A stretch of 58,014 bases of DNA from Candidatus Magasanikiibacteriota bacterium (GCA_943355025.1 CALRDW010000001.1:1-58014), one strand, 5' to 3'. Shown: positions 9,200-53,644, counted from the first letter of the stretch. The notes: generated by a model from the letters alone, not told the origin. Program-made: numbers and translations.

Positions 9200-9228
9200 T
9201 TGACAAAAACAGGGAATTGTGCTATAGT
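9200..9228 (+). promoter_or_regulatory. Cassette 1 promoter
   Basis: TTGACA-N17-TATAGT with extended -10 TG. Confidence 0.85.
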
Positions 9229-9311
9229 TTTTTGCTCGCAGGTGAGCCCGCAGTGGGTAATCTTGTTTGAGCACAAGAAGTGAGCGCACAAAATGTGCAG
9301 AGGAAAATGTC

Positions 9312-9884
9312 ATGAAAACTAGCGAAAAAACAGTCGCGGAAGACGTAACAAACGAAAATGAGGGCTGGAAGCCCGCCTATCCGAAACTCACTGTTTTGGC
9401 GGGTGTCCTGGTGACTGTTGCTGTGTTTTGGGGGTTTTGGGCTCTCCTGGAGAACCACGTGCGAACTTTGAAGGCTGCTGCGAGCGTGGAGAAAGCTCAG
9501 CTCGAAACGGTGCAGAAGGGTCTGCGTGCGGCCCACACCGCTAAAATGACGCAGTATCTCAAGCAATTTGAAAAACTCGATGCTGTCGATGACCTTCAAG
9601 AAGAAGATCTGAACGCTGTATTGCAGGAATTTTGCACGGTCGCTGCCGTGCACCGCAGCCAGCCAGTTGGGCGCTTCGTCTACTTTGTCGAATTGAACTA
9701 CTCTCTGGAATGCGCGCGTGCTGTCGCCGTTACGCGTTCATCGCACATGGCAAATCGTTACCAACCGTTTAACCAGGCACACAATTGCGAGGCCGCACAG
9801 CATGGAAAATTGCTGCGCGTGGTCTGCCACGGTTACAACTGGCCAAACGGTTTGATGCCACAAGAAAGAGCCAGAACAGAGTAA
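9312..9884 (+). CDS. ORFan, single TM helix plus helical region (cassette 1)
   Basis: GAGGA SD before ATG 9312; hydrophobic LTVLAGVLVTVAVFWGFWALL. Confidence 0.7.
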   Translation: MKTSEKTVAEDVTNENEGWKPAYPKLTVLAGVLVTVAVFWGFWALLENHVRTLKAAASVEKAQLETVQKGLRAAHTAKMTQYLKQFEKLDAVDDLQEEDLNAVLQEFCTVAAVHRSQPVGRFVYFVELNYSLECARAVAVTRSSHMANRYQPFNQAHNCEAAQHGKLLRVVCHGYNWPNGLMPQERARTE

Positions 9885-9928
9885 CAGCGCTTGCTGTCCG
9901 TAATCCGTTACTCTGCCGCTCTGTTCCC

Positions 9929-9968
9929 GCCGACGTACCGCTTTCATGCTGCGTCGGTTTTTTATTTT
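9929..9968 (+). terminator. Cassette 1 terminator
   Basis: GCCGACG...CGTCGGT followed by TTTTTATTT. Confidence 0.7.
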
Positions 9969-10756
9969 TATAGCTGCTGCGCTACAATGTTTGATACTTG
10001 AACATTCGCATCTTCCGTGTAGAAGCCATATTGGCCGTCAGCAGTTAGCTGATCGTTGCCTGACATGGCGTAGGAAACATATTGTTTGCCATTGACTGTC
10101 ATGGTCACTACGTTGTTTTTTACGTTAAGCACAACGTTGTACGTGTCGTTGACTGGGAAAATATCTTGATTGAATGTAGAGGTGTAGAGGAAGTCCTGAG
10201 CATTATTCAAGAGGGATTCTCCCATTTCAACACCGTAGCCCTGCGGTTTCAAGACAATGTACTTGAATTTACCATCTGGTTTGTATCCGAAGAGTATCCA
10301 ACCAGTTTCCCACGGATTTGGTGTGGAACCTGTGCGAAGCTGCTGAATGGTTTTCATTGTGTAGCTCAATTGAAACGGTTGTTTGAGTGTTTGTGAACTC
10401 ACGACAAGTGAGGCGTGTGTTTCGCTCGGCTGTGTTGCGGCCTGTGGAGCCATGTTTAACTGTTGAAGCGCTGAGTTCCATGTAACAGAACCGTAACCAT
10501 CAAAAATTGTCGTTCCCCATGGGATTGATGTTGAAATTATGTTTGGCGCTGATGGCTGTGTTGGCGCCACTGGTAGGGGTGCTGGTGCCGGAGATGGATC
10601 CAGTGGGGCTGCCTCGGAGTTAGTTTTTTTATAAGAATGATGTGTCTTTGTGTTCTTTGAAGTTCTGGTAGCGCTTGTCTTTTCGGCTGCAAATGTAGGC
10701 GTCGCTGAAACGAGCAGCGCTGTTGCAATAGTGATTGTGGAGATTTTTTTCAACAT
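9968..10756 (-). CDS. Secreted protein with Pro-rich linker and ConA-like (DUF1080/GH16-like) beta-sandwich
   Basis: Signal peptide (TFA); P.AATQPSETHASLV, QLRTGSTPNPWE, GFYTEDANV. Confidence 0.75.
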   Translation of the reverse strand: MLKKISTITIATALLVSATPTFAAEKTSATRTSKNTKTHHSYKKTNSEAAPLDPSPAPAPLPVAPTQPSAPNIISTSIPWGTTIFDGYGSVTWNSALQQLNMAPQAATQPSETHASLVVSSQTLKQPFQLSYTMKTIQQLRTGSTPNPWETGWILFGYKPDGKFKYIVLKPQGYGVEMGESLLNNAQDFLYTSTFNQDIFPVNDTYNVVLNVKNNVVTMTVNGKQYVSYAMSGNDQLTADGQYGFYTEDANVQVSNIVAQQL

Positions 10757-10924
10757 ATTGAATATGAGAAATTAATTAAGCACTGAGTTTGTTGTATAGG
10801 CCGTACTGTTATATACGGAAAAAAGAGACAAAAGGTTTCAAAACTAATTGAAGTTTTGCACAGCTTGAGCATTTTGACACTGGTTGGGGCTCAAAGGAAC
10901 ATTCTATAACTCAGTGCACCACCA

Positions 10925-10953
10925 TTGACAACGCCGCTGTTTTATGATATAAA
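10925..10953 (+). promoter_or_regulatory. Cassette 2 promoter
   Basis: TTGACA-N17-TATAAA with TG; followed by long hairpin GAATTGGTGAG...CTCGCCAATTC. Confidence 0.7.
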
Positions 10954-11039
10954 TGATGGTTCGAATTGGTGAGTGCGCTGCACATTGAGGTGTTTAGCGC
11001 TCTCGCCAATTCAACAACCAGGCGAGGGAGGGTCTGTCC

Positions 11040-11768
11040 ATGAATGGTATTTTGGGGTTTCTGATGATTTTGTTTGTCGTAAGCGCGTGCGGCGCAGTAC
11101 GAGTTAAGGAAGAAGCAAAAAAGGAAACTAAGAGTCTGTTCCGACCCGACCAGCTTGCTGAGATGCAGTTGGTGGTCGAGTCCCTGCAGGCCTATGAAAA
11201 AAAAGTCATTGGCGCGCTGTGGAATGAGAACGAGAAGATTCACATCTCAGCTGAAGAAGCTTGCGTGCAGTACAAAGTCGCCGTGAAACGATGTGGCCAC
11301 GGATTTCGTCCCGACCATGCTCTTGCTGACTCCGAGAATCAATGGTGTGAGGATCAGGCCGCGGAGCTTCTTGCGAAAATTCAAAATTGGGCAGAGCGTA
11401 AGCTTCGATTGTGCGCCGCCATGCGTGCTGCTTACGAAAAGCGGTTTGAGATGGGTAAGCCGCTTGTTGCGCTCTTGCTCATGGAAAATTCGGCACATGT
11501 GCGATACCGCGCGACGATGCTTAGTGACGGCTATGAGGTTGGTGTAGAACTCAGGCCGCTTTACGCGACCTACGATATCTACGATATCGGCTTCATCTTG
11601 GACACTAAAGTGTCTAAACTGCCACATGACTCCTATCAGCGCGCTTTGCTGATCAAGGAAGTTGAAAAGGATTGGCGCGCTGTAAACCACGCGGCGATCG
11701 AGACAGCTGATTATGTGGGCGCGCTGAAGTTTGAAGCGGACGCTCCGAAGGTTATTACGCTGTTCTAA
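11040..11768 (+). CDS. ORFan, putative lipoprotein, helical (cassette 2)
   Basis: GGAGG SD; hydrophobic N-terminus ending VSAC. Confidence 0.75.
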   Translation: MNGILGFLMILFVVSACGAVRVKEEAKKETKSLFRPDQLAEMQLVVESLQAYEKKVIGALWNENEKIHISAEEACVQYKVAVKRCGHGFRPDHALADSENQWCEDQAAELLAKIQNWAERKLRLCAAMRAAYEKRFEMGKPLVALLLMENSAHVRYRATMLSDGYEVGVELRPLYATYDIYDIGFILDTKVSKLPHDSYQRALLIKEVEKDWRAVNHAAIETADYVGALKFEADAPKVITLF

Positions 11769-11810
11769 TAAAACCCACGTTGTACACAGAAAAATCAACA
11801 ACAAATTAAG

Positions 11811-11860
11811 GGCCCCGTCACCACAGTGAAATATATGTGGTCGCGGGGTCGTTTTTTATA
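11811..11860 (+). terminator. Cassette 2 terminator
   Basis: GGCCCCG..ACCACA...TGTGGT.CGGGGTC then T-tract. Confidence 0.75.
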
Positions 11861-11910
11861 TCAAGAGCTATTAAAATTACTTATTTTTAGCTAAATATTC
11901 AGGGCCAGCA

Positions 11911-11939
11911 TTGACAAAACCGCCAATATGTGGTATGCT
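11911..11939 (+). promoter_or_regulatory. Cassette 3 promoter
   Basis: TTGACA-N17-TATGCT with TG; hairpin CTTGGCA...TGCCAAG follows. Confidence 0.85.
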
Positions 11940-12007
11940 TTTTTGTCTTGGCAAACTCTGCCAAGCGACCAGTTTCTTTCAAACGATCCATTACTCAAGG
12001 AGTTCCC

Positions 12008-12676
12008 ATGAAAGCGTTTACACGGATTTTGGTCCTATTTATGCTGGCCTTGGCACTTGTGCCGGCGTGCGTTGCTGAAAATCAGCCGGAAGTGTCGGTG
12101 ATCGACGAATCTGGAATTACGGCCGTGAGCCCAGATCAAATTGAACTGGTGTTCAACGTCAAATACACCGCGGCGGATCGGGCAAAACTTGCCGTCGTGC
12201 CGTTCAGCAAAGAGGATCTGATCGCTGCGCGCAATCAGAACTTCGTTCTCGTGGCCGGGTATCCGATTACGCTTGCAGAAATGCATGCGGCAAAAACGTT
12301 TATCAATGAGGACTACGATGAATTTATTCGTTACCTCACTGAACCGTTAGCTAAAGAGCCGGTTGGAGTACGCTGGTTTCTGATTCGGAAAGGGCTATTG
12401 TCTTGGTCAGAGCATGCGCCGTATGCGGAACAATCCGCCTTGGTTCCTCATGGTGAGCAGATTCCGCCGACGCGTGACATTGTGTTTGCGACATTGGCGT
12501 TGTATCTCACAACGGGTGAGCGGATGCTGGGCAACAGAATGGCGAGTTCAAGCGACCTAAGCCCTGCATATGGGCGGACGTTTGTTGGCCTCTCTGGAAA
12601 CAAGGTTTTCATTGACTTTGAACCGAACGATGAGGGACACCTGGGCATGGGCGTGCTCACAACCATCGAGCCTTGA
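12008..12676 (+). CDS. Secreted or lipoprotein with probable C-type-lectin-like fold (cassette 3)
   Basis: AAGGAG SD; VPAC lipobox; VPFS.E.L, WFLIRK, EQ..L....E.P, YL.TGERM. Confidence 0.75.
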   Translation: MKAFTRILVLFMLALALVPACVAENQPEVSVIDESGITAVSPDQIELVFNVKYTAADRAKLAVVPFSKEDLIAARNQNFVLVAGYPITLAEMHAAKTFINEDYDEFIRYLTEPLAKEPVGVRWFLIRKGLLSWSEHAPYAEQSALVPHGEQIPPTRDIVFATLALYLTTGERMLGNRMASSSDLSPAYGRTFVGLSGNKVFIDFEPNDEGHLGMGVLTTIEP

Positions 12677-12701
12677 TCCGCGTCGTGGTTATACAACCAC
12701 A

Positions 12702-12745
12702 AACTTCTTCGCTAGCTGCAAAGCTGGCGGAGAGTTTTTTTATTT
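12702..12745 (+). terminator. Cassette 3 terminator
   Basis: TTCGCTAGC-tgcaaa-GCTGGCGGA then TTTTTTTATTT. Confidence 0.75.
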
Positions 12746-12806
12746 AATTCTTTTTAAGAAAATTATTTTAGGTGAGATACTACCCCAAAGTTGACCAAGG
12801 TGAGAG

Positions 12807-12835
12807 TTGACAAAAGCGCTGTTTTGTTGTATAGT
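12807..12835 (+). promoter_or_regulatory. Cassette 4 promoter
   Basis: TTGACA-N17-TATAGT; hairpin CCTGC-aaaaa-GCAGG follows. Confidence 0.85.
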
Positions 12836-12913
12836 ATTCAGTCCTGCAAAAAGCAGGCAACTGCATTATTTAGAGAACCTTAACAATAAAACAATAAGGA
12901 ATTGGGGGGTATA

Positions 12914-13588
12914 ATGGCGCATTATTATCGAGTGATGATTTTTGGACAAAATGTTAGATTGAATAAGCTTTCGCAAATGGCAGACTATGCTTTTGCTGCA
13001 GAGATTTACTCTGATCCTGAATCACAGTGGCCAGGCCACGAGCGTGTACTATTCGATTGGGCGCAGGTTCCTGATGACCTTACCGTCGCGGGCGGGAGTA
13101 TCAGATACGCTGTCTATCTCATGTATCGTGATACAGTCATTCGGCGATTCACGAATGTAGAAGATTTACGGTATTATGGTTGGCAACAGCTTAATCCGAA
13201 TGCTGCAGCGATTGTGGAAATTGAATCCAGGCTGGTTATGTACCGTGCACGTTTTCGCGAGGTCAGCAATAGCGAAGGGGATTTTCGTGATTATCGCGTC
13301 CGCACATTTCAGTTTGATCCGCAGCGTGGGTGCCTGAGTTGTATGTTGCCTGAGTTACTTGACGGGTTTCGCGTCGTGTACGTTCCACGGATGGGCAGCC
13401 GTCTGTGTGTAGCCGTGGAGCCGGGCGTTCCATATGCCTGCAGATTTTCGCATGTCTGCATTGAGCATCTGCCAAAGGCTGAACGACCAGGTTTCCAGCT
13501 GATCGAGGTGATCGTGCAGCATGAACATTTTGATCCAGTCGCGAAGATCGCATGGTTGCAGGCACAAATTGCTGCGGGTAATCCGTAG
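12914..13588 (+). CDS. ORFan (cassette 4, gene 1)
   Basis: TAAGGA / GGGGGG upstream of ATG; long ORF with no recognised family. Confidence 0.7.
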   Translation: MAHYYRVMIFGQNVRLNKLSQMADYAFAAEIYSDPESQWPGHERVLFDWAQVPDDLTVAGGSIRYAVYLMYRDTVIRRFTNVEDLRYYGWQQLNPNAAAIVEIESRLVMYRARFREVSNSEGDFRDYRVRTFQFDPQRGCLSCMLPELLDGFRVVYVPRMGSRLCVAVEPGVPYACRFSHVCIEHLPKAERPGFQLIEVIVQHEHFDPVAKIAWLQAQIAAGNP

Positions 13589-13600
13589 TGGAGGAATTCA

Positions 13601-14128
13601 ATGCTCTTTAATCCTGTCACAAGAGGTGCTCATCGGTCACTGAGCCGAATTGAGGCATACGGATGTATCATCGTAGTGATGATATCTGCAGGTGTTTGGA
13701 AATATCAGGCTGATGCGCCGGCACGCGCTGAGGAGGCACGGCTCGCTGCTTTTGGAAAATCTCCGGAGTGGGTTGAAGCCACACGTCCAGATCTTCGGCT
13801 CATCTCGTCAGAATTTTTTAGCGGGTCAGGCACACTGCTTGTTGAAAATCATTCAGGCTCGTGTCGAACGATGCGCGAATTGATTTCTGAAGCCGCAAAA
13901 ATCCGCGGGTACAAAGCGGGACACCGGTTCCTGGTTGGTACTCCACCGGATGACGTGCTTGAACGCGTTTTGGAGCGCGGTGGACTCGACTTCGGTCGTT
14001 GTCGCGTCTTGGTTTGGACGGGGAGGGCGTCCACTGGAGACCCCGACCAATCATTGGTTGAAATTGCGGACTGCGATTTCTTTCCAATGACACGTTGCAT
14101 CAGCCACACAGAACTGTTGGGCTGGTAA
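13601..14128 (+). CDS. ORFan with N-terminal TM helix (cassette 4, gene 2)
   Basis: GGAGG SD; GCIIVVMISAGVW hydrophobic segment. Confidence 0.7.
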   Translation: MLFNPVTRGAHRSLSRIEAYGCIIVVMISAGVWKYQADAPARAEEARLAAFGKSPEWVEATRPDLRLISSEFFSGSGTLLVENHSGSCRTMRELISEAAKIRGYKAGHRFLVGTPPDDVLERVLERGGLDFGRCRVLVWTGRASTGDPDQSLVEIADCDFFPMTRCISHTELLGW

Positions 14129-14134
14129 GTAATT

Positions 14135-14197
14135 GCACCCTGCCTTTAATGGCAATTTTGATCACGACGTGATTGAAAGGGTGCTATTTTTTTATTT
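14135..14197 (+). terminator. Cassette 4 terminator (branched)
   Basis: GCACCCT...AGGGTGC then T-tract and ATTT. Confidence 0.65.
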
Positions 14198-14225
14198 GTA
14201 ACTTCATGTATAATGAGCGCCACAT

Positions 14226-16169
14226 ATGTTTGGCGAAAAAACTTTTTTCGGTGCACCGAAAACTCCAGAACAACTTGATACACAACTACAAAGTGTTCAG
14301 AAACAGTTAGGTCATGAGCCAGAGGTATCTCTGGTGCCTGCGTCTGTTGAGCGTGAAAAAATTTTACAGATGCCCGTGATCGAGTTGCAGGAAAAATACA
14401 CTCGTCGTTTTCAGGCGTATTTTGAATTACTGCGCCAAGAAAATAACCCTGATTTTGTAAGTCGAGATAAATTGACAGCAGATTTTAAAAAATGGTTGAT
14501 TGCGCTCAATTCGTTGGATGTGTATGTTAAAAAACATCATGCTGGAGTTGACGTCACACTCCGTGGCAAGCAGATCGATGTTTTCGATGATCTACACAAT
14601 TTTTTGGAAGCAGGTGGTACAGCTGGATATATAAAATTGCCGACAGGTGTTGGTAAAACGGTTCTGTTTACGGAATTGATCGAGGCGTTGGATTTAAAAA
14701 CGCTGATTGTTGTGCCGACAAATATTTTAATTGATCAGACGGTTGATAAAGCAGAGCAATTTGCGCCGGATATTGAGGTCGGTGTTATTAATCGGACGGC
14801 AAAACAGTATTATAGAAAAGTGACGGTTACGACGTATGCATCACTTGCGCGTCAGGTTGCGCAGGGGCTTATCAAGCCGGAGGAGTTTGAGTGTTTAATT
14901 TTGGATGAAGCGCACGAGGCGCTCAGCGACGCGCGTCAAAAATTAGTGCGAAAGTTTTCAAATGCCGCGAAGATTGGTTTCACCGCGACGCCTACGTTTT
15001 CCGCGGAAAAACAGCTCAGTGATTTATTGCCAACGTGCATTCATTCAATGGAAACACGCGAGGCAGTTGAGAAAGGTTTGCTCTGTTCAGTATCTGCTGT
15101 GGTTGCGAAAACGTCCGTGAATTTATCTAAAGTTCCGAAAAATGCCATGGGAGATTATAGCGAATCTGAGCTCGCATATGCAGTGAATATAGCAAGTCGA
15201 AATAAGGCTGCAGCGCTCCTTTATAAAGAAGTATTTAGCGGTGAGCAAGCTATTGTGTTTTGCGTAGGTATAACGCATGCGCGCGAGGTTGCGCGAGTGT
15301 TTCGCGAGGAAGGTGTTGCTGCTGCATTCATCAGTGGCGAAACCACGAAAGACGAGCGGATTCGGCTGCTCGCAGAGTTTAATCGTGGTGAAATAAAAGT
15401 TTTGTGTAATGCGGATTTATTAACTCGCGGTTTTGATGAGCCGCGAGCAAGTGTATGTTTGAATTTGCGGCCAACATTGTCTTTAGTTATGGCTGAACAA
15501 CGCGGTGGACGTGTGCTCCGATTGGATCCTGATCGACCTGACAAGCACGCGACAGTTGTTGATTTTGTTGATCAATCTGACAGTATTGATGAGTTGCAGG
15601 CAACTGGCCAGGTATTGTTTGCGAAAATCTTGGGCGGTGCGTTTGTTGTGGCCGCTGCGAGCGGTGGGAGGTCTTGGGATTCTGGCGGCCGGCCGGGGCA
15701 TGGAGGTGGGTTTGTTGTTAAAAAACCAAATATTTACATACCAGGGCTTGAGGTATTTTTTGATACTGAAGAAGTGCTCCGTATTGTCGGAAAGGTTGAA
15801 GAAGTCAAAATAGAGAAGAGCCGACTTATTTTGGATTTGGAGGACTTGAAGAAACTGGTGCGACTTGCCAAAGTACAGAGCCAAGTAGAATATTTAGAAA
15901 AACGAGTCAATAATCCAAGTTGGCCACATAGTCCGGATCGATTAGAAGGCTGGGTCAACTGGAATGATTTTTTGGGAAAAACGAGTGTTGAGACGATTAG
16001 TGAATTAGCGGTTCTGCAGCTTGCTGTGCGTGTGGCACACGTTCGAAACAGGTTTGAATATGAGGCGCAGCGGGAAACTCATCCTGCGTGGCCCGGTCGG
16101 CCGGATTATTTGGCCGGTTGGACGAATTGGTTCGATTTTTTGGGAAAAAAGAAGCGTGATCGGCGATAG
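14226..16169 (+). CDS. SF2 DEAD/DEAH-box helicase with two C-terminal integrase-repeat-like units
   Basis: LPTGVGKT, DEAH, TAT, GFDEP, QRGGRVLR; two WP..PD...GW.NW.DFLGK repeats. Confidence 0.9.
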   Translation: MFGEKTFFGAPKTPEQLDTQLQSVQKQLGHEPEVSLVPASVEREKILQMPVIELQEKYTRRFQAYFELLRQENNPDFVSRDKLTADFKKWLIALNSLDVYVKKHHAGVDVTLRGKQIDVFDDLHNFLEAGGTAGYIKLPTGVGKTVLFTELIEALDLKTLIVVPTNILIDQTVDKAEQFAPDIEVGVINRTAKQYYRKVTVTTYASLARQVAQGLIKPEEFECLILDEAHEALSDARQKLVRKFSNAAKIGFTATPTFSAEKQLSDLLPTCIHSMETREAVEKGLLCSVSAVVAKTSVNLSKVPKNAMGDYSESELAYAVNIASRNKAAALLYKEVFSGEQAIVFCVGITHAREVARVFREEGVAAAFISGETTKDERIRLLAEFNRGEIKVLCNADLLTRGFDEPRASVCLNLRPTLSLVMAEQRGGRVLRLDPDRPDKHATVVDFVDQSDSIDELQATGQVLFAKILGGAFVVAAASGGRSWDSGGRPGHGGGFVVKKPNIYIPGLEVFFDTEEVLRIVGKVEEVKIEKSRLILDLEDLKKLVRLAKVQSQVEYLEKRVNNPSWPHSPDRLEGWVNWNDFLGKTSVETISELAVLQLAVRVAHVRNRFEYEAQRETHPAWPGRPDYLAGWTNWFDFLGKKKRDRR

Positions 16170-16337
16170 AAATCACGGTGGAATGCTAGGCTTGTCGCTA
16201 CCACCTAATTGGCTGCTTCGCAGTTTTATGCGAGGCGGTTATTTTTTACTGACAATGTATTTTTGCATAAAAATGCTAAATAACCTAAAATAAATTTATA
16301 GAGCTATTTGGAATTACAGCATCAATTAGAAAAAACT

Positions 16338-16805
16338 ATGGCTAAATATAAACACACTCAAATTGGCTACTTGATGCTGGTCATCACGCTGGCCGTGCTG
16401 GCGCTTTTCGTATGGGTTCATATTACGGTCGCGGTCGAGCCTCCTTCGATTGATTCCGGTTCAAACTTTCTCGTTACTGCTGTAATGGCGCTAATTTTGC
16501 TTATCATTGGATCGTTTGTAACGCTCGCAACATCCATTGATGAAAAATTTCTTCAGATCAAATTTGGATATGGAATTTTCGCCAAAAAGTTTCCACTTAA
16601 TCAAATTGCTTCAGTCCAGTCAGTCAAAAATCATTGGTACTACGGATGGGGAGTGAAAGTTTGGTTCTGGCCGTATATGTGGGTTTACGGTGTTTCCGGT
16701 TTTGATGCGGTTGAAATAATCCTGAGAAACGGAAAAATTTATCGTATTGGGACAGATGCGCCGAACGAATTAGAAGCTGCAATTAAGCAAGCCATAAATA
16801 TCTAA
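16338..16805 (+). CDS. Conserved hypothetical membrane protein (2 TM plus PH-like domain)
   Basis: YKHTQIG start; I.FG.G.F.K, WYYGWG, G..YRIGTD.P..L. Confidence 0.8.
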   Translation: MAKYKHTQIGYLMLVITLAVLALFVWVHITVAVEPPSIDSGSNFLVTAVMALILLIIGSFVTLATSIDEKFLQIKFGYGIFAKKFPLNQIASVQSVKNHWYYGWGVKVWFWPYMWVYGVSGFDAVEIILRNGKIYRIGTDAPNELEAAIKQAINI

Positions 16806-16822
16806 AAAGATTTTTCACGGGT

Positions 16823-17050
16823 ATGGTGCATAAACTCCCAGAGGATTTACGAAAAGCAATTGATTCACTTCCTGCGGCGCGAGCAGTGTGGGACGACATC
16901 ACGCCGCTTGCGCGCAATGAGTGGATTTGTTGGGTAACGTCCGGCAAAAAAGTCGAGACGCGGAGTATTCGAATCGAAAAAGCGCTCTCGAAGCTGAAAG
17001 GCGGAATGCGACGGCCGTGTTGTTGGGCTGGGTGCACACACCGTTCTTAG
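16823..17050 (+). CDS. YdeI/OmpD-associated family protein
   Basis: LPEDL...W..ITPLARNEWICWV...K..ETR..RI....RRPCCWAGC. Confidence 0.85.
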   Translation: MVHKLPEDLRKAIDSLPAARAVWDDITPLARNEWICWVTSGKKVETRSIRIEKALSKLKGGMRRPCCWAGCTHRS

Positions 17051-17061
17051 ATTATATTTTT

Positions 17062-17328
17062 ATGAAGGACAAAATCATTTTTTCTGAAACGCTCTCTGGT
17101 TTGACGCCAAAAAAATTAGAAGGATTTTTTGTTGGTTGGCCAAAAAAACCATCATCAAAAACACTTCTGACATTGCTCAGAAAAAGTGATTATCGAATTA
17201 TAGCTCGGAATAGTAATGGGCGCGTGGTAGGTTTTATTACTGCAATTAGCGATAGCACGCTTGCCGCGAAGAGAACGAAAAAGTCTCCCTTTCGGAGAGG
17301 CTCATTCATGGCGGGGCGTAGTGGATGA
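17062..17328 (+). pseudogene. Truncated GNAT acetyltransferase
   Basis: GFFVGWP..PS...L..S.Y...A....VVGFITAISD, then homology stops near 17268; acetyl-CoA motif A absent. Confidence 0.7.
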
Positions 17329-17384
17329 AGTTGGGAGGTGTTTTCGAACTGGTCAGCATGTCCAGTTTATGCTATAATCGCTTC

Positions 17385-17624
17385 ATGTTAACAGCAATAC
17401 GCGTGCCAAAATCAATTATTCCAGTGCTTTGGGACGTGCCGAATCCTGCGAAAATTGATATCAAAAAATATCAAAATTTTATTATTGCGCGCGTTGCAGA
17501 AAAGGGTGGATGGACGGATGTACAATGGCTCAAAAAAACGTATGGCGTTGCAGCGATTCGTCGCGTGGTTGCTCGCAGTAAAAATGTTGGGAAGAAAACT
17601 AAGAATTTTTGGAAGATTGTATGA
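17385..17624 (+). CDS. Putative antitoxin (DUF6922-like)
   Basis: LWDV....ID.....FII.RV.E.G...D..WL...YG...NFW; TATAAT 6 nt before ATG; ATGA overlap with toxin. Confidence 0.75.
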   Translation: MLTAIRVPKSIIPVLWDVPNPAKIDIKKYQNFIIARVAEKGGWTDVQWLKKTYGVAAIRRVVARSKNVGKKTKNFWKIV

Positions 17625-18244
17625 TGCATGAAACTGCATTAAATTCGGCGACAAGAAGTGTATTTGAGAAATTACGACACGCTTCATTTTTGAAAAAATT
17701 TTATTTAGCAGGTGGCACCGCGCTTGCGTTGCAGTATGGTCATCGTGAGTCAGTGGACTTAGATTTTTTTTGTGCGAAGCCGTTTAAAACAGAAACGCTC
17801 ATTGCTGCAATTTCAAAGCTGGGAAAATTTAAGTTGGTGAATGAAGAAGAAAATACTGTTGATGGCGTGCTCGACGGAGTTAAGGTGAGTTTTTTTACAT
17901 ATCCATATAAACTATTGCGCAAGACAAAAATGTTTGAAGGTGTTGCTGTTGCCAGCGTTGTAGATATTGCGTGCATGAAAATCAATGCGATCGCAGGGCG
18001 CAATGCACGTAAGGATTTTGTGGATCTGTATTTTATTTTGGATCATGAAGGATGGCGCGTTGAAGATGTGCTGCATCTGTGCAATAAAAAATTTGGTGCA
18101 GGTGCACGGGATCCTTATCATATTTTGAAAGCGTTGGTGTTTTTTGAAGAGGCTGATGGGCAGCCAGAGGTGGCGAGTAAACCTATTGTCAAATGGATAA
18201 GGGTGAAGAAATTTTTTGTGAATGAGGTTGAGGGAATACAGTAA
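17621..18244 (+). CDS. AbiEii/AbiGii-family nucleotidyltransferase toxin
   Basis: FYLAGGTALAL..GHR.S.DLDFF, MK..AI..R..RKDFVDLY. Confidence 0.9.
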   Translation: MMHETALNSATRSVFEKLRHASFLKKFYLAGGTALALQYGHRESVDLDFFCAKPFKTETLIAAISKLGKFKLVNEEENTVDGVLDGVKVSFFTYPYKLLRKTKMFEGVAVASVVDIACMKINAIAGRNARKDFVDLYFILDHEGWRVEDVLHLCNKKFGAGARDPYHILKALVFFEEADGQPEVASKPIVKWIRVKKFFVNEVEGIQ

Positions 18245-18325
18245 TGTGAAGGATATTTTTTAGCGTAGTTTTGGGGAAAAATATTATTTTTTTGCTTAAA
18301 TTAGCTAAATAATGCTAAATTAGGG

Positions 18326-18354
18326 TTGACAGAGTCAGCTTTTTGTGTTATAGT
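18326..18354 (+). promoter_or_regulatory. Cassette 5 promoter
   Basis: TTGACA-N17-TATAGT with TG; hairpin TCCAG...CTGGA follows. Confidence 0.85.
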
Positions 18355-18426
18355 GCTTGGTTCCAGCAAAAAGTTTGGTTCTGGACATTGAAATTTCGAT
18401 CATTAAAACTTGTAAGGAGATATATC

Positions 18427-18975
18427 ATGGAACTCAAACGTAAAGTTATAGGTCTCTTCGTCGATGGCGTTTTGTTTGATGGATTTGAAAAGGGGTTCGA
18501 CAAAAATGCCAATAAGTTATTTGCAGGTAAGTACGATTACGTGCAAATGTTACCAGGAGCGTTGGATTCTGTGAAACTTCTTATTGAGAAAGGGTGGGAG
18601 GTCCATTTGCTTGTTTGTACTTTTAAGCGCGATCTGCCATATTGGCGGGCAGTTACGAAATGGGCAAAGCACAATGGATTTTTTGGTGAAGGCTTGCTTA
18701 AGCCGAAACAGATTCACTGTATGACCTATGCAGCCTTGCCGCGTTATGCAAAGCGCCTCAAATTCATCAAGGTGTACATGACATTTCCTGAACAGCACTA
18801 TTGTTTCACACTCCACGGCTTCTCTCAGATTCCCAGCCATCCTTTTGGTCAAATTAGTCCAGCTGGATGTCTCAAAGACCATGTTGCGTTTCAAAAGATG
18901 GTGTATAGCAATGAGGATTTTGAAGCTAGGGCAGCTCTTGTTGATGGCGACAAGTTTTGGGATGAAGCTGTCTAG
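18427..18975 (+). CDS. Degenerate HAD-fold ORFan (cassette 5)
   Basis: TAAGGAG SD; VIGLFVDGVL (motif I without the nucleophile Asp), LPGALD..K.L...G.EVHL. Confidence 0.7.
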   Translation: MELKRKVIGLFVDGVLFDGFEKGFDKNANKLFAGKYDYVQMLPGALDSVKLLIEKGWEVHLLVCTFKRDLPYWRAVTKWAKHNGFFGEGLLKPKQIHCMTYAALPRYAKRLKFIKVYMTFPEQHYCFTLHGFSQIPSHPFGQISPAGCLKDHVAFQKMVYSNEDFEARAALVDGDKFWDEAV

Positions 18976-19031
18976 GGCTAAGGGCATATCTAGAATCTAA
19001 GTTCTGAACAGCAACTCTAAACGTTATGTAA

Positions 19032-19082
19032 GACCCCATGATTACATCTGAACAGATGTGGTCGCGGGGTCATTTTTTTTAT
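19032..19082 (+). terminator. Cassette 5 terminator
   Basis: GACCCC.TGATTACATCTG-aa-CAGATGTGGTCGCGGGGTC then T-tract. Confidence 0.8.
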
Positions 19083-19095
19083 CAAAACTTTTTTC

Positions 19096-19223
19096 GGAAC
19101 TCTCCGGTTCGCAAAAGATGCGAGCCGGCCCGGGCAGTCGGAATGTCCGCTGGACATTCCTTGGTTCCTGGGCCTGCGCACGCTCGGCCCGCCTTTGGCC
19201 CCTTCGAGTCCCTTCCAGTCCGC
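19096..19223 (-). repeat. tRNA-Asp 3'-associated structured element with a 21-bp inverted copy of the tRNA 3' end
   Basis: 19203-19223 is the exact reverse complement of 19265-19285; three further hairpins. Confidence 0.8.
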
Positions 19224-19230
19224 GTCCAAA

Positions 19231-19260
19231 GAAAAAACCACCCTTGCGGGTGGATTTTTT
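19231..19260 (-). terminator. Terminator after tRNA-Asp
   Basis: AAAAAA.CCACCC-GCAA-GGGTGG-TTTTTT on the minus strand. Confidence 0.8.
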
Positions 19261-19262
19261 CA

Positions 19263-19339
19263 TGGCGGACTGGAAGGGACTCGAACCCTCGACCTTCCGC
19301 GTGACAGGCGGACGTTCTAACCAGCTGAACTACCAGTCC
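19263..19339 (-). tRNA. tRNA-Asp (GTC)
   Basis: Cloverleaf GGACTGG/CCAGTCC, anticodon loop CT-GTC-AC, GGTTCGAGTCC, encoded CCA. Confidence 0.97.
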
Positions 19340-19425
19340 AAGTGAGGCTGACAATGAGTGTTTACACTCGATTGTCATGCCGAGCGCGGACGCCGTAGTT
19401 ACGAATGTAACTACCAGTCCAGCGC
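19340..19425 (-). repeat. tRNA-Asp 5' leader element with duplicated tRNA 5' end
   Basis: 13-bp direct repeat 19328-19340/19409-19421 inside a long hairpin; second hairpin with a GTAAAC loop. Confidence 0.75.
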
Positions 19426-19491
19426 GGTACTACGTAAATTTTTTTTGCACCGCGTGTTCAGTTTGTCATGCTGAGAACGCTCAAAAGGCCT

Positions 19492-19848
19492 TTACGCCTT
19501 TACAACCTGCACTTTTTTAACAATGCCTTCAAATACCTTTGGGTATTTCTGTGCGAGTTCTGCCAAAACCTTACGATTCAACGTGATGTTTGCTTTTTTC
19601 AAAGCATCCATGAAGCGTGAATAGGTCATACCGTACTGGCGAACAGCTGCGTTGATCGAAATGTGCCAAGCTGCGCGGAACACAGCTTTCTTTTTGCGGC
19701 GAGCCTGCATGGAGTTGACGCCAGAGTGAAGAATGGCTTCCTTTGCCATTTTTACACGGTTCTTGCGACCCCACATGAAGCCTTTTGTATTTTTGAGCAG
19801 TTTTGTGCGCTTTCGTGCGCGAACTGTTCCTCGTTTAACGCGTGGCAT
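19492..19848 (-). CDS. rplT: 50S ribosomal protein L20
   Basis: MPRVKRG...FR..W...INAA.R..G..YS.FM..LKK..I.LNRKVLAELA. Confidence 0.98.
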   Translation of the reverse strand: MPRVKRGTVRARKRTKLLKNTKGFMWGRKNRVKMAKEAILHSGVNSMQARRKKKAVFRAAWHISINAAVRQYGMTYSRFMDALKKANITLNRKVLAELAQKYPKVFEGIVKKVQVVKA

Positions 19849-19859
19849 ATATCAAACAA

Positions 19860-45539: not shown

Positions 45540-45540
45540 T

Positions 45541-46131
45541 ATGTTTACGGGAATTATTACGGAAGTTGGTGAAATCATTGATGCTCGCGATGAACAGGGG
45601 TGGCGAGTTGTACAGGTGAGCGGACCAAAAACAGCTGCGCGAGTTCTCCGTGGTTCGAGTGTTGCAATAAATGGTGTGTGTTTGACTGTTCAAACAATAG
45701 CCGAGAATGGCAGCATGCAATTTTCAATTTTGCCGCAGACCCTTGCTGTAACACTGATCAGTAATTGGCAACCGGGTACAAAAGTTAATTTAGAAAATGC
45801 GCTTCGTGTTGGCGACGAACTCGGTGGCCATTTTGTATATGGCCACGTCGACGGCACAGCAACTGTTGTAGCAGTTACACAGGAGGGTGAATCCACGCGC
45901 ATTCGTATGACGCTTCCACCCGAACTCCATAAATTTACGGCGCCTAGAGGATCTATTTCGATAAATGGAACAAGCCTTACAATAGCGGAACGTGGCGATG
46001 CATATATTGAAGTCGCACTTGTTGCATACACACTTTTAAATACAACATTGGGGGAATTGAAGGTTGGTGACGCTGTGCATGTCGAGTGTGATATGCTTTT
46101 AAAATTTATTGCGCAGGCGGCTGTGCATTGA
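45541..46131 (+). CDS. ribE: Riboflavin synthase alpha chain
   Basis: MFTGII, S.A.NGVCLTV, VNLE, GGH.V.GHVD, G.SLT. Confidence 0.96.
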   Translation: MFTGIITEVGEIIDARDEQGWRVVQVSGPKTAARVLRGSSVAINGVCLTVQTIAENGSMQFSILPQTLAVTLISNWQPGTKVNLENALRVGDELGGHFVYGHVDGTATVVAVTQEGESTRIRMTLPPELHKFTAPRGSISINGTSLTIAERGDAYIEVALVAYTLLNTTLGELKVGDAVHVECDMLLKFIAQAAVH

Positions 46132-46156
46132 CAAAAAGCGCTCCAAATGCTAGTGT
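46128..46156 (+). promoter_or_regulatory. Cassette 6 promoter
   Basis: TTGACA (contains the ribE TGA stop)-N17-TAGTGT with TG; hairpin GTAGG-ga-CCTAC. Confidence 0.75.
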
Positions 46157-46181: not shown

Positions 46182-46514
46182 ATGTGGCTCATTGATATCT
46201 TTAGAGAGTGGTCAAAAAAGAAGTCTGGACGCAATAAACGGCAGCCTTTTACGTACGAAGCCGTGTTGCTGGCGCTTGAAAAAGCGGGTGGTATGCGGAT
46301 TGAGCTTGAGCTGCGCGAAGAGCTCGGATATTACGAGGTGAGCCCTGTGTGCGACCACGTTGTTGCACGCTTGGCGAGTCGCGGGCACATTAAAATTGTT
46401 TCGCACTTTGTCGCCGGCGAGTCGATGGTGTCTCGTGCGCTTCAAATCACAGACTGTGGGCGTACCACGCTCGATACTGAGCATATGAGGAATTATCGAT
46501 GCAAGTCGAATTAA
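46182..46514 (+). CDS. Winged-helix-like ORFan (cassette 6, gene 1)
   Basis: GAGGTG SD; ELREELG...V....L..RG.I....SRALQIT..G. Confidence 0.65.
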   Translation: MWLIDIFREWSKKKSGRNKRQPFTYEAVLLALEKAGGMRIELELREELGYYEVSPVCDHVVARLASRGHIKIVSHFVAGESMVSRALQITDCGRTTLDTEHMRNYRCKSN

Positions 46515-47092
46515 ATGCCGCGGTTACGACTGTTGCGACGAGCGATGACGAGGTGCTCTTGCTCAAAGCGGCGGCGATTGTTCTTGAAAAGATGAAAGGA
46601 GCGAAGGATCACGGCAACTTTGGATTCAGCATCATCCTTCATGGACAGCAGGACTCAGGCAAATTTTCCGCACATACAGGGGCCGGCGGTAATGTGAGTA
46701 TCGATTCAGGTCCGGATACAAAGAAAACACGTGTGTTTTCAAACGTGACCCCTGAGCGCGTTGGTCAGTGGCGCGTGTGGCGTGAAGTCGATTCCATTCT
46801 GGTTCAGAATTTTCAGGACTACAAACGCGACCAGGAACAAATTTCGGCATCGATGCGCCCATATAGGTGTATCAAATTTGATCAGCGAACGTTTGACATC
46901 GTCGACGTCAGCCAGATCGAGTTTCCTGAGGAATTGACGATGAGGCTGTTCTTTATTACGTTTCGCGGAAGTTCCGTTGAGTACCTGACGGGACCGAATA
47001 AAGGGTTTGTTGATGAGGAAACTGTTTTCCCACGACTGATCGCTCTGCGGAATTGGTGGCGTAGTCTGTGGAATCGCGATAAGAAGAAGTAA
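46499..47092 (+). CDS. ORFan (cassette 6, gene 2)
   Basis: GAGGA SD; long ORF followed by a terminator. Confidence 0.7.
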   Translation: MQVELNAAVTTVATSDDEVLLLKAAAIVLEKMKGAKDHGNFGFSIILHGQQDSGKFSAHTGAGGNVSIDSGPDTKKTRVFSNVTPERVGQWRVWREVDSILVQNFQDYKRDQEQISASMRPYRCIKFDQRTFDIVDVSQIEFPEELTMRLFFITFRGSSVEYLTGPNKGFVDEETVFPRLIALRNWWRSLWNRDKKK

Positions 47093-47115: not shown

Positions 47116-47155
47116 TGCCGGCAATTCCTTTGAGAATCGTCGGCATTTTTATTTT
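47116..47155 (+). terminator. Cassette 6 terminator
   Basis: TGCCGGC.ATTC...GAAT.GTCGGCA then TTTTTATTTT. Confidence 0.7.
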
Positions 47156-47203
47156 CAACAGGATTCCAAAGTTTAGTAACTAGTCCAATACATTAGTTCA
47201 ACA

Positions 47204-47362
47204 TATACCCAAAGAAATTATTTGTGCTGTTCGTGGTACGTGTCGATTTTCTCAGCAGAAAATCGCACTCATTCTCGGTGCTGCTCGTCCGCGTTTACGC
47301 GGACACTGACCCGCAGCACCTCCGAGAGCCCCCTCGCAGCACAAATAATTTCTTTGGGTATA
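47204..47362. mobile_element. 159-bp MITE/REPIN-like element with perfect 26-bp terminal inverted repeats
   Basis: TATACCCAAAGAAATTATTTGTGCTG ... CAGCACAAATAATTTCTTTGGGTATA enclosing two hairpins. Confidence 0.6.
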
Positions 47363-47478
47363 CCTCCATTCGCGTGTTATTCTACTCCCATACTTCCTAA
47401 TCCTTTTGAAAAACCTCTTATAGAGCTTTTGGAGGATTGCGGTGCAAGCTCTGCCGTTGGGTAAAATTGATGATTTTT

Positions 47479-48608: not shown

Positions 48609-48612
48609 AAAA

Positions 48613-48645
48613 TAAAAATACTGCTAAAGTATAGCAGTATTTTTA
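48613..48645 (-). terminator. Terminator after rpmA
   Basis: Perfect 14-bp inverted repeat TAAAAATACTGCTA/TAGCAGTATTTTTA. Confidence 0.7.
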
Positions 48646-48661
48646 GCGACTCACCAAAAAA

Positions 48662-48952
48662 TTATTTTGCAGCTACTTTTCGGCCAACGTTCGCAAACGT
48701 GCGAAGCGCAAGTGAACCATCAAATGCTTTGACTTTCCGTCGGGTATACGTAACCAAGCCAGCAATTGCTGCGTAGAGTGTATCGTCTTTGCCGCGGCGG
48801 ACATTTTTGCCGGGGTGGACTTTTGTTCCACGCTGGCGAAAAATGATCTGACCTGCGAGTGCCTTTTGTCCATCATGAAGCTTGGCACCGAGACGTTGCG
48901 CTTGCGAGTCTCGGCCCAGTTGGGTGGAACCGGCGGATTTTTTTGTTGCCAT
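48662..48952 (-). CDS. rpmA: 50S ribosomal protein L27
   Basis: MA.KK..GS...GRDS...RLG.K, RQRGTK.HPG.NV..G.D.TL. Confidence 0.97.
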
Positions 48953-49006
48953 AGCGGGATAATTGCCAAAATCAAGTGAAAGGATTATACTCTAGGAACT
49001 ATAGCT

Positions 49007-49294: not shown

Positions 49295-49298
49295 ACAC

Positions 49299-49664: not shown

Positions 49665-49665
49665 T

Positions 49666-50739: not shown

Positions 50740-50741
50740 GT

Positions 50742-51872: not shown

Positions 51873-51873
51873 T

Positions 51874-52950
51874 ATGAAGATTTTATTTTCTGGTGGTGGT
51901 ACGCTTGGGCCAGTCACACCATTGCTCGCTGTCATCGAAGAGTTGCGATTGCAGGATGACGCTTCGGCACATCAATTTTTGTGGATTGCAACTGAGCGTG
52001 GTGTTGAAATTCCGCTTTTGCGTAAAGCTGGGGTTGAAGTCGTGACAATCCCATCAGGTAAATTTCGACGGTATGTTGATTTTAAAAATTTGAGCGACCT
52101 CGGCAACATCGTGCGTGGGTTTTTCGCGGCGCGAAAAATTATCCGTGAATTTAAGCCAGACGTTGTTGTGACTGCAGGGGGCTTTGTTTCTGTTCCGGTA
52201 CATTATGCAGCGCGGTTTTTGGGTGTTCCAAGCCTGGTGCATCAGCAAGATCTCCGTATCGGTCTTGCCAACAAGCTCATGTCATGGGTTGCGCGGCGCG
52301 TTACGGTTTCGGTAGAGGCTCAACGTGCAGAGTTTTCAAAATTGAAAACCGTTTATACAGGAAACCCTGTGCGACTGAGTGTACTTGCGGGTTCGCGCGA
52401 GCGAGCGATTGAATTGTTTCGATTGAATAGCGATCTTGCGACAATTTTTGTATTTGGCGGCGGAACGGGTTCAACGAACATCAATCGTATCATCGAGCAA
52501 ATCGCGCGAGAGAGCTCTGGTCAATTTCAAATTATACATTTAACCGGTGCGCAGAGAACACAATCTGTGGTTCATGATGTGCCGACATATCATCCGTACC
52601 CGTTTTTTACTGGTGAGATGGCGCACGCGTATGCGGCGGCGGACATTGTTGTTGCGCGCGCTGGTTTTAACACGATTACAGAGGTTGCCGCATGGGGAAA
52701 GCCCTCGATTTTGATTCCGATTTTTGGTTCGCATCAAACTGAGAATGCTCTATGGGCTGGGGAGCGGGGAGCTACGTTTGTGCAGGATGAATTAGCACTG
52801 ACACCACATGATTTGCTCCAGGAACTGCGCGATATTTTGAATAACGCCGAGCGGTATGAATCAATGTCGGTCGCGGCTTCTGAGTTGTTTCCTGTTGGGG
52901 CACGTGAGCGATTGGCTACGGAAATTTTAGCTGTGGGCAGCGGAAAGTAG
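51874..52950 (+). CDS. murG: Lipid I N-acetylglucosaminyltransferase
   Basis: GGGT.G...P, GGFVS.P, GNPVR, GG..G, HQ..NA. Confidence 0.95.
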   Translation: MKILFSGGGTLGPVTPLLAVIEELRLQDDASAHQFLWIATERGVEIPLLRKAGVEVVTIPSGKFRRYVDFKNLSDLGNIVRGFFAARKIIREFKPDVVVTAGGFVSVPVHYAARFLGVPSLVHQQDLRIGLANKLMSWVARRVTVSVEAQRAEFSKLKTVYTGNPVRLSVLAGSRERAIELFRLNSDLATIFVFGGGTGSTNINRIIEQIARESSGQFQIIHLTGAQRTQSVVHDVPTYHPYPFFTGEMAHAYAAADIVVARAGFNTITEVAAWGKPSILIPIFGSHQTENALWAGERGATFVQDELALTPHDLLQELRDILNNAERYESMSVAASELFPVGARERLATEILAVGSGK

Positions 52951-52972
52951 GCTATTTTTGCGGGCCGCAGGG

Positions 52973-53001
52973 TTGACAAAATAGCACAAATGTGCTATAG
53001 T
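52973..53001 (+). promoter_or_regulatory. Cassette 7 promoter with overlapping palindrome
   Basis: TTGACA-N17-TATAGT with TG; ATAGCACA-aa-TGTGCTAT at 52981-52998. Confidence 0.85.
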
Positions 53002-53037
53002 TTTTTTCAGTCAACCATAACCTTATTGGAGGGTTAC

Positions 53038-53571
53038 GTGCTAAAGTTCAATAAAATTGCGGCTATCTGGGTGGCGGTACTGCCCGTGCTTTACTTGGCC
53101 GTGCAGATTGGATTTTTGTGTTTGGGGGCAGCCGTTTTTGCGTCGGTCGCATATCTCGCGGTTCCACGAATGTTGTTTATGTTCATTCTGGCGCCCGCTG
53201 TGGTTGTGTTAGTAGCATGGGCTGAGTGCATCTGGAAAGACCACTTTGGCGAGGTTTACACATGGGATTTTCCAGAGTGGAAGCGCGCCGTGGTGTTCAT
53301 AGTCGCCGGGCTTGTCAGCATGTGGCTGACGTTCTGTGTAAAGCAGGTGTTTTTTAAAGGCTCTGTCGTGCTCAACGACCACGTGACTTTTACTGGCTAC
53401 ACTCTTATTTTGGCCATAGTCTATGTTGGCGTTGAGTGTGGAAGCAGCGCGCTGGTGATCGATCGGAATATCGGTCGTTGGCGCAACTGGCTCGGCTATT
53501 ATGGCCAGCAGCCGTCGCCGGACCGGTGGCGCGCGATCAAAGAAATTCTTCGTGGTCGGGCTGAGCACTAA
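53038..53571 (+). CDS. Polytopic membrane ORFan (cassette 7)
   Basis: GGAGG SD, GTG start; 4-5 hydrophobic segments. Confidence 0.7.
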   Translation: MLKFNKIAAIWVAVLPVLYLAVQIGFLCLGAAVFASVAYLAVPRMLFMFILAPAVVVLVAWAECIWKDHFGEVYTWDFPEWKRAVVFIVAGLVSMWLTFCVKQVFFKGSVVLNDHVTFTGYTLILAIVYVGVECGSSALVIDRNIGRWRNWLGYYGQQPSPDRWRAIKEILRGRAEH

Positions 53572-53592
53572 GATGCGCGTCCGCTCTGAGCA

Positions 53593-53644
53593 AGGCGATT
53601 CGGTGGTTTGTGGAAACACAACTACCTGAGTCGCTTTTTTATTT
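53593..53644 (+). terminator. Cassette 7 terminator
   Basis: AGGCGATTC...GAGTCGCTT then TTTTATTT. Confidence 0.7.

Follow-up and report, generated by a model that had tools for sequence, protein, structure and literature searches.

Seven stand-alone ORFan units in a Candidatus Magasanikiibacteriota genome share the ordinary predicted promoter and terminator signals of their order

A phage moron is an autonomous promoter-gene-terminator unit, and the gene cassettes of integrons are promoterless, bounded by attC sites, dependent on the integrase IntI and expressed from a common Pc promoter. Here we analyze seven loci that recall both systems, located between positions 9,200 and 53,644 of a 58,014-nt stretch of DNA from a Candidatus Magasanikiibacteriota bacterium (CALRDW010000001.1:1-58014; hereafter, the window). 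The window is the first 58 kb of contig C1 in a genome of 988,540 bp on 33 contigs. We refer to the loci as cassettes 1 to 7 and to their nine open reading frames (ORFs), the cargoes, as c1 to c7, with c4a and c4b, and c6a and c6b, where a unit holds two. A first-pass annotation, made from the sequence alone, had read the loci as one family with its own expression grammar, possibly mobile or co-regulated. We found that the shared design of the units is that of the order's ordinary promoter and terminator signals, as far as these can be predicted from sequence. With a probability of about 0.7, the seven loci are independent, lineage-specific accessory ORFans (genes without a homolog beyond the genus or family) that occupy variable gaps of a conserved backbone and use standard promoter and terminator signals. 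They are a further example of already known flexible islets and hotspots, such as the hotspots of gene turnover between core genes that are free of mobile genetic elements (MGEs; Oliveira, Touchon, Cury and Rocha 2017, Nat Commun, PMC5635113).

That study describes variable content within syntenic core intervals, some of them by tRNA genes, and no recognizable mobile-element genes. Both features recur here, together with a DNA-uptake toolkit (ComEC and DprA are present in the genome). It also proposes a route of uptake and recombination for MGE-free hotspots, a route that we infer, rather than show, for the present loci. The hotspots described there are compared among strains of one species, whereas our comparison is among genera of one family, and the fills here differ in being single ORFan units of 0.6-1.3 kb. 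Like phage morons, the cassettes are self-contained, autonomous units between unrelated genes, with cargoes of obscure function; unlike them, they sit between chromosomal core genes and not in a prophage, use the host's consensus promoter and, for the two cargoes tested, lack a phage match. Like integron cassettes, they are co-oriented units of a single gene each, unrelated to one another and often ORFans. However, each has its own promoter instead of relying on a Pc, attC-like boundaries are absent (among 12 flanks, only the cassette 2 and cassette 5 terminators share sequence), and no integron integrase was found beside the array. The first-pass annotation was right that no integrase is visible: the single tyrosine recombinase in the genome (PF00589) is on contig C8, and none is in the window.

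The architecture of the units was, for the most part, described correctly. All seven loci combine TTGACA with a 17-nt spacer; six of them match TTGACA-N17-TANNNT, which we define as a perfect site, and the seventh, at 10925, has TATAAA, as had been reported. A canonical TG stands one base before the -10 hexamer at every locus except 12807. Good Shine-Dalgarno sites precede cargo ORFs of 110-242 amino acids (aa). Downstream of the stop codon, all seven units have a GC-rich hairpin followed by a T-run (5-8 nt) and AT, the predicted form of an intrinsic terminator. None of the nine ORFs scores above a Pfam cut-off, the best being T2SSM (19.4 bits; cut-off 27.8), and the core-gene flanks RibE/Era and MurG/tRNA-Lys were confirmed.

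The promoter, however, is general and not specific to the cassettes. The window contains eight perfect sites compared to 0.50 expected (none of 100 shuffles reached eight): six at the annotated loci, and two more, 6717(-) and 57180(+), that precede a cold-shock gene (6446-6646, minus strand) and a tRNA-Gly pair. Genome-wide, there are 109 perfect sites where scaling up the window shuffles predicts about 8.5, a density of one per 9.1 kb compared to one per 7.3 kb in the window. Crude ORFs cover 91% of the genome, and 83 of the 109 sites lie outside them; ten sites precede tRNA or tmRNA genes by 6-154 nt. Outside the window there are 101 sites, which divide into 73 with a classified ORF (same strand, at least 70 aa, start -60 to +200 nt from the site, no intervening tRNA), nine before tRNA or tmRNA genes and 19 that are unclassified. 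A Pfam family above cut-off was found in 38 of the 73 classified genes (24 of 40 in batch 1 and 14 of 33 in batch 2; the scan covered all 73, with families listed at E<=1e-3 in batch 1 and E<=1e-5 in batch 2, where a borderline family may escape). These genes include the ribosomal proteins S2, S6, S15, S16, S20, L1, L10, L19 and L21, as well as EF-Tu, IF-1, GroES, HrcA, TopA, ParB, a class-I tRNA synthetase and an H+-PPase. The whole-genome scan that the first-pass annotation had proposed therefore finds perfect promoters before core genes as well, which largely contradicts the idea of a cassette-specific grammar.

The same signals extend across the order. In a sample of 31 genomes, every one contains matches to TTGACA-N14-TGNTANNNT (15-136 per genome, compared to 0-3 for the reversed control). 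A position matrix of the perfect sites gives the consensus TTGACAaaa...T.TG.TAtagT, and the TG one base upstream of the -10 hexamer is present at 50 of the 109 sites. Likewise, a T-run followed by AT is the commonest terminator ending in the genome (72 of 174 terminator-like sites under the same rule). Extra promoter sequence had also been reported as common to particular loci. The 16-mer TGTGCTATAGTTTTTT at loci 1 and 7 is real, but such strings are accounted for by the general consensus, because all of these promoters lie close to it. Compared to sigma-70 promoters with an extended -10 element, we see no difference in kind: the -35 TTGACA, the 17-nt spacer, the TGn, the -10 TAnnnT and the position 20-110 nt before start codons all agree, and the sites occur far above chance before tRNA, ribosomal-protein and ORFan genes alike. 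What stands out is the frequency of the full consensus in a small genome. A text search found no literature joining Patescibacteria, promoter and TTGACA. Transcription start site data for one member of the candidate phyla radiation (CPR), Nanosynbacter lyticus, are used in a published study (PMC12641261). In this order of ultra-small bacteria, core and accessory genes would draw on one sigma-70 consensus, kept with unusual strictness and including an extended -10 element, and on one uniform form of terminator, a regularity that could help to annotate transcription units in uncultured CPR genomes and to choose portable promoters.

The surrounding gene order places the units in gaps. We compared six genomes of the family, all from other genera (MurG 58-64% identical). 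A core order of about 20 kb is colinear in five of these relatives (G001, G002, G003, G005 and G006; the window genome is G000), and across them the ribE/era and murG/tRNA-Lys intervals hold different genes or none (Table 1). The era/L27 and tRNA-Lys/murC gaps are examples of the reverse, filled in relatives and empty in the window genome. In G001 and G002, the ORFs that fill the murG/tRNA-Lys gap bring their own terminators and promoters of the TTGACAAAA type, and by BLASTP they have no relation to c7. The ORF in the ribE/era gap of G003 has no BLASTP similarity to c6a, and its single-sequence HHalign score against c6a equals that of the reversed control.

Cassettes 1-5 lie within what gene order identifies as an 11-kb variable region at a synteny break, beside tRNA-Asp. 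The block IF3-L20-tRNA-Asp is kept in G001, G002, G003 and G006, the four relatives in which IF-3 was located, and the content past tRNA-Asp is different in each of them. The helicase at 14226-16169 has no ortholog in the family relatives, in which Nramp and IF3 are on separate contigs. With empty sites for cassettes 6 and 7 in relatives, no counterpart of the region of cassettes 1-5, and five of nine cargoes absent from all 200 other genomes of the order that we searched, the cargoes are not syntenic, vertically inherited orthologs, which agrees with the first-pass annotation. The contigs of four sequencing runs (X1-X4, from one study) over positions 8000-20000 show no empty-site joints, at a depth of 3-9; X2 has a gap in coverage at about 10.9-13.5 kb that we do not take as evidence. 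The intervals ribE/era, era/L27, murG/tRNA-Lys and tRNA-Lys/murC, together with tRNA-Asp, are named slots at which gain and loss of CPR genes can be watched.

Table 1. Predicted elements of the seven units, and occupancy of four backbone gaps in the window genome (G000) and its relatives
Feature	Position	Strand	Description
Cassette 1 promoter	9200..9228	+	TTGACA-N17-TATAGT, TG extension
c1	9312..9884	+	190 aa, N-terminal hydrophobic segment, no Pfam family, found in 0/200 other order genomes
Cassette 1 terminator	9930..9965	+	Hairpin, T6, AT
Cassette 2 promoter	10925..10953	+	TTGACA-N17-TATAAA, TG extension; -10 without final T
c2	11040..11768	+	242 aa, lipoprotein-like N-terminus (by eye), no Pfam family, found in 0/200 other genomes
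Cassette 2 terminator	11810..11859	+	3' half and T-run (30 nt) 93% identical to cassette 5 terminator
Cassette 3 promoter	11911..11939	+	TTGACA-N17-TATGCT, TG extension
c3	12008..12676	+	222 aa, signal-/lipoprotein-like N-terminus (by eye), no Pfam family
Cassette 3 terminator	12705..12744	+	13-bp stem, T7, AT
Cassette 4 promoter	12807..12835	+	TTGACA-N17-TATAGT, no canonical TG (TG abuts hexamer)
c4a	12914..13588	+	224 aa; one relative in 200 genomes
c4b	13601..14128	+	175 aa, N-terminal hydrophobic segment; relatives in G002 only
Cassette 4 terminator	14135..14195	+	Hairpin, T7, AT
Cassette 5 promoter	18326..18354	+	TTGACA-N17-TATAGT, TG extension
c5	18427..18975	+	182 aa, found in 0/200 other genomes; start corrected to 18427
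Cassette 5 terminator	19032..19082	+	Hairpin, T8, AT; homologous to cassette 2 terminator
Cassette 6 promoter	46128..46156	+	TTGACA-N17-TAGTGT, TG extension; overlaps last ribE codons
c6a	46182..46514	+	110 aa, found in 0/200 other genomes; start corrected to 46182
c6b	46499..47092	+	197 aa; one solid relative in 200 genomes
Cassette 6 terminator	47116..47152	+	Hairpin, T5, AT
Cassette 7 promoter	52973..53001	+	TTGACA-N17-TATAGT, TG extension; begins 22 nt past murG stop
c7	53038..53571	+	177 aa, multi-pass membrane protein (by eye); start corrected to GTG 53038
Cassette 7 terminator	53593..53642	+	Hairpin, T6, AT; tRNA-Lys promoter directly 3'
ribE/era gap			G000 1347 nt (c6a, c6b and solo repeat element); G001 ~24 nt; G005 ~137 nt; G003 485 nt (105-aa ORF with own perfect promoter); G002 without ribE; G006 not seen (ribE on other contig)
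murG/tRNA-Lys gap			G000 900 nt (c7); G001 at least 640 nt (two cassettes); G002 983 nt (two small membrane ORFs); G003 155 nt; G005 218 nt; G006 ~174 nt
era/L27 gap			Empty in G000, G001, G002 and G003; filled in G005 (1.9 kb) and G006 (1.6 kb)
tRNA-Lys/murC gap			G000 36 nt; G001 contig ends; G002 ~200 nt; G003 ~295 nt; G005 955 nt, filled; G006 ~230 nt

Two other features attributed to the units were borne out only in part. A leader hairpin had been described at each unit; two of the six leaders tested beat their shuffles (z of -2.6 and -2.0), while the other four range from -0.7 to +0.4. With only two of six window leaders at z<-1.5, we rejected the leader hairpin as a common cassette feature. 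Genome-wide, z<-1.5 is reached by 25% of 109 leaders compared to 11% of 150 random 45-mers. All seven units are indeed on the plus strand, but this is no sign of a special co-orientation, because the leading-strand bias of the window suffices (49 genes on plus and 21 on minus; GC skew positive in 29 of 29 bins), giving seven of seven a chance of about 0.08. Two more island ORFans, at 8563-9120 and 9968-10756, are on the minus strand and have no near-perfect promoter.

The cargoes are narrowly distributed. No second copy or paralog of any of the nine was found in the same genome (E<0.01). Among the 200 other genomes, c1, c2, c5 and c6a have no match and c7 no credible one, so these five qualify as ORFans; c4a, c4b and c6b are each matched in one genome by distant relatives, and c3 in six. 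Cargo c3 is the only one with family-level relatives (four of six family genomes at 34-41% identity, and two more elsewhere in the order) and is not an ORFan in this sense. The relative of c4a is in G055 (30% identity), those of c4b are two tandem copies in G002 (31-35%), and the solid relative of c6b is in G009 (22%), where it comes with a perfect promoter of its own, as do the relatives of c3, c4a and c4b. A full phmmer search of 1.84 billion representative proteins found no relative of c6a but itself. A protein homology search with c5, c6b and c3 returned only the queries, a weak negative, since the same search missed the known relatives of c3. In G055, the c4a relative (locus L120, 1248-3111) adjoins the 3' end of era, a slot that in the window holds the unrelated cassette 6.

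By eye, c1, c2, c3, c4b and c7 (five of nine) have signal, lipoprotein or transmembrane segments, and the set provides concrete candidates for host-interaction or surface genes. In a strain variant of c4a, 11 of 19 substitutions fall at third codon positions, as expected of a real coding gene. Eight of the nine cargoes lie at the 77th-95th genome percentile for GC content and for GC content at third codon positions (GC3). Of the diverged folds that the first-pass annotation had suggested, the haloacid dehalogenase (HAD) and winged-helix types persist as leads from ESM Atlas look-alikes. Those of c5 suggest an HAD/NT5C-like fold (feature score 0.93, template-modelling (TM) score 0.6-0.7), and c5 seems to be without the first Asp of the HAD DxD motif; those of c6a suggest a winged helix of PadR/MarR type (TM score about 0.6). 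AlphaFold2 models made without alignments were too poor for a fold search (predicted local distance difference test (pLDDT) 42.9 for c6a and 45.3 for the G003 slot ORF).

Under the favored explanation, each locus would be a stand-alone unit in a roughly 1-Mb Patescibacteria/CPR genome, with a promoter, a Shine-Dalgarno site, one or two ORFs and an intrinsic terminator. Its chassis would be the housekeeping sigma-70 consensus of the order (TTGACAaaa-N-TGnTAtagT) and the usual terminator (hairpin, T-run, AT), and the promoters and terminators presumably work as predicted. The units would look alike because each is near the consensus, and not from descent of one element. In a variable gap, a gene may be expressed and tolerated only when it brings its own promoter and its own insulating terminator. 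The genes were most plausibly gained, via DNA uptake and recombination at flanking core genes, and not inherited and then lost elsewhere; we propose uptake because ComEC and DprA are present. The backbone would be very stable, with lineage-specific ORFans occupying a few variable gaps in it as single, insulated genes whose composition differs from that of core genes.

The boundaries of the units offer little sign of a mobile or co-regulated pool, as the first-pass annotation had envisaged: there are no common boundaries or flanking repeats. We found no convincing direct repeats or target duplications flanking cassettes 5, 6 and 7 or the island, nor did we see a phage gene in the window, where the flanks are RibE, Era, MurG, tRNA-Lys, tRNA-Asp, the helicase and AbiE. 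A tblastn search with c4a and c6b, two of the nine cargoes, against 50,697 phage records returned no match. When the 12 non-coding flanks were compared to the genome, the only significant common stretch was that of the cassette 2 and cassette 5 terminators. Separately, TTAGCTAAATA occurs upstream of both the cassette 3 and the cassette 5 promoters, and the 10-mer TAGCTAAATA has two copies in the genome.

Several observations weigh against independent units with ordinary signals. The direction of change cannot be polarized as gain or loss, as the nearest genomes belong to other genera, too distant for intergenic DNA to be aligned. The cassette 2 and cassette 5 terminators (11835-11864 and 19056-19085) share 30 nt at 93% identity, with only two copies in the genome, while their 5' stem halves differ. 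The six window promoters are more alike than random sixes of perfect promoters (0 of 2000 as alike); the excess falls mainly at consensus positions (0.59 compared to 0.34), is absent at spacer positions 9-14, and is smaller in the AT-rich flanks (upstream 0.316 compared to 0.258, downstream 0.305 compared to 0.257). Genes without a Pfam family are also over-represented behind perfect promoters (35 of 73, compared to 3 of 20 random other genes; Fisher p=0.0097), in large part because ORFans are stand-alone units; of the 12 random genes at the head of a unit, 3 have no Pfam family. Compared to the Pfam-bearing genes behind perfect promoters, the no-Pfam genes are more likely to be followed by a terminator of their own (17 of 35 versus 9 of 38; p=0.03), more often end it in a T-run and AT (12 of 17 versus 2 of 9; p=0.04) and are richer in GC3 (median 0.524 versus 0.440, p=2.5e-4; translation genes are at the genome mean, 0.438). 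Their pooled dinucleotide deviation is 50.8 against a null of 18.1 +/- 6.2, with 0 of 200 random sets as extreme; for the nine cargoes alone it is 59.3 against 38.5 +/- 16.6 (p~0.10). Taken as a whole, these observations leave room for a distinct ORFan class with a common source. The TG extension was tried as a further marker and rejected: it separated no-Pfam from Pfam genes in batch 1 (14 of 16 versus 6 of 24, p=2e-4) and not in batch 2 (7 of 19 versus 6 of 14, p=1), so that the pooled difference (21 of 35 versus 12 of 38, p=0.019) is weak and not replicated.

It is unlikely, though not far-fetched, that the cargoes are positional orthologs diverging very fast, old and vertically inherited slot genes that have become unrecognizable and been lost in some lineages. 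Rapid divergence does occur here, since the c3 relatives in four of six family genomes are just 34-41% identical, and the cargoes are mostly membrane or secreted proteins, a fast-evolving class. The 105-aa ORF of G003 matches c6a in slot, orientation, promoter type and nearly in size, and an TTGACAAAA promoter lies directly past the murG stop in G000, G001 and G002, followed by small membrane proteins. Yet the slot-mates show no sequence similarity, including in the HHalign comparison of c6a with the G003 ORF; within a single genus (g3), G002 has a filled murG slot where G003 and G005 have an empty one; and the relative of c4a occupies another slot, beside era. We consider it very unlikely that the units form a true mobile pool, integron-like or site-specific, whose promoter-gene-terminator modules recombine at terminators or junctions. 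The shared terminator stretch, TTAGCTAAATA and the occupation of the same slots by different cargoes across genera, with the c4a relative in the era slot of G055, all fit such a pool, and we retain it at its low probability because of the ORFan class differences in terminators, GC3 and dinucleotide signature. The pool would, however, have left no boundary repeat besides the cassette 2 and 5 pair, no duplicated cargo, no empty-site joint in the contigs of the four runs and no recombinase nearer than contig C8; each unit has its own promoter, unlike integron cassettes, and relatives only 22-41% identical give no sign of recent transfer.

A variant without a dedicated integrase is improbable: the ORFan units would be a distinct class (rich in GC3, deviant in dinucleotides, more often TG-extended, self-terminated and ending in a T-run and AT). 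Their source would be an external gene pool that has not been sampled, for instance CPR phages, plasmids or other cells by way of transformation, and each would have entered as a whole at a terminator-promoter junction between core operons, with the cassette 2 and 5 terminators and TTAGCTAAATA as scars of module exchange. If this were true, it would amount to a moron-like cassette economy on a cellular chromosome. That the units are remnants of phage morons or prophage cargo is highly improbable. The moron-like architecture, the viral membership of some c5 and c6a look-alike clusters in the ESM Atlas and the AbiE toxin-antitoxin pair beside c5 point that way, against which stand the core-gene flanks, the absence of visible phage genes from the window, the failure of c4a and c6b to match phage records and a promoter that is the host's own consensus. 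We give hardly any credence to genes born de novo from intergenic DNA behind chance strong promoters. Five cargoes lack a detectable relative in the searches made, as new genes would, but eight of nine have a GC and GC3 content unlike AT-rich spacer DNA, their lengths are 110-242 aa, good Shine-Dalgarno sites precede them, c4a shows its third-position bias, and c5 and c6a resemble known folds, if only as leads. Independent gain of accessory ORFans into variable gaps remains the reading we favor.

Neighboring sequences provide further observations. Adjoining c5, a DUF6922/AbiEii pair (17325-18244) has relatives in G001 (L112, 4551-5152) at 76-81% aa identity, also a few kb past tRNA-Asp. This identity, well above the core level of 58-65%, suggests recent transfer or strong constraint. 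Just past the terminator of tRNA-Asp, a 21-nt perfect inverted copy of the tRNA 3' end is present (19203-19223 and 19265-19285), and next to it 41 nt (19165-19205) have a counterpart of 90% identity near tRNA-Val on contig C14 (25580-25620). The arrangement may record a rearrangement or integration event at the tRNA, or it may be a trailer module of the tRNA.

In the ribE/era gap, a solo copy of a multi-copy element (47151-47420) separates the c6b terminator from the 3' end of era, and no gene follows it. Its conserved arms of about 67 and about 72 nt surround a hairpin whose inverted repeats are perfect over 26 nt (47204-47229 and 47337-47362), and a genome-wide blastn search found 25 left-arm and 28 right-arm matches, many at contig ends.

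Past cassette 7, in the region 53655-53860, tRNA-Lys is preceded by a TTGCAA...TATAAT promoter of its own and by a leader of about 160 nt. A direct repeat of 23 nt (53700-53722 and 53751-53773) lies in this leader, as does a 27-nt segment that is 78% complementary to the 5' end of the tRNA; the leaders in G003 and G005 are similar in length, and in G003, judged by eye, the tRNA-Lys promoter appears to contain the murG stop. Beyond era, the L27 promoter has an 18-nt spacer (TTGACA-N18-TATAAT), and the gene is probably the 96-aa frame 48662-48952 on the minus strand, judging from its position and the N-terminal sequence of its relatives; we call an overlapping longer frame, 48673-48975, spurious, although tblastn matches it in relatives.

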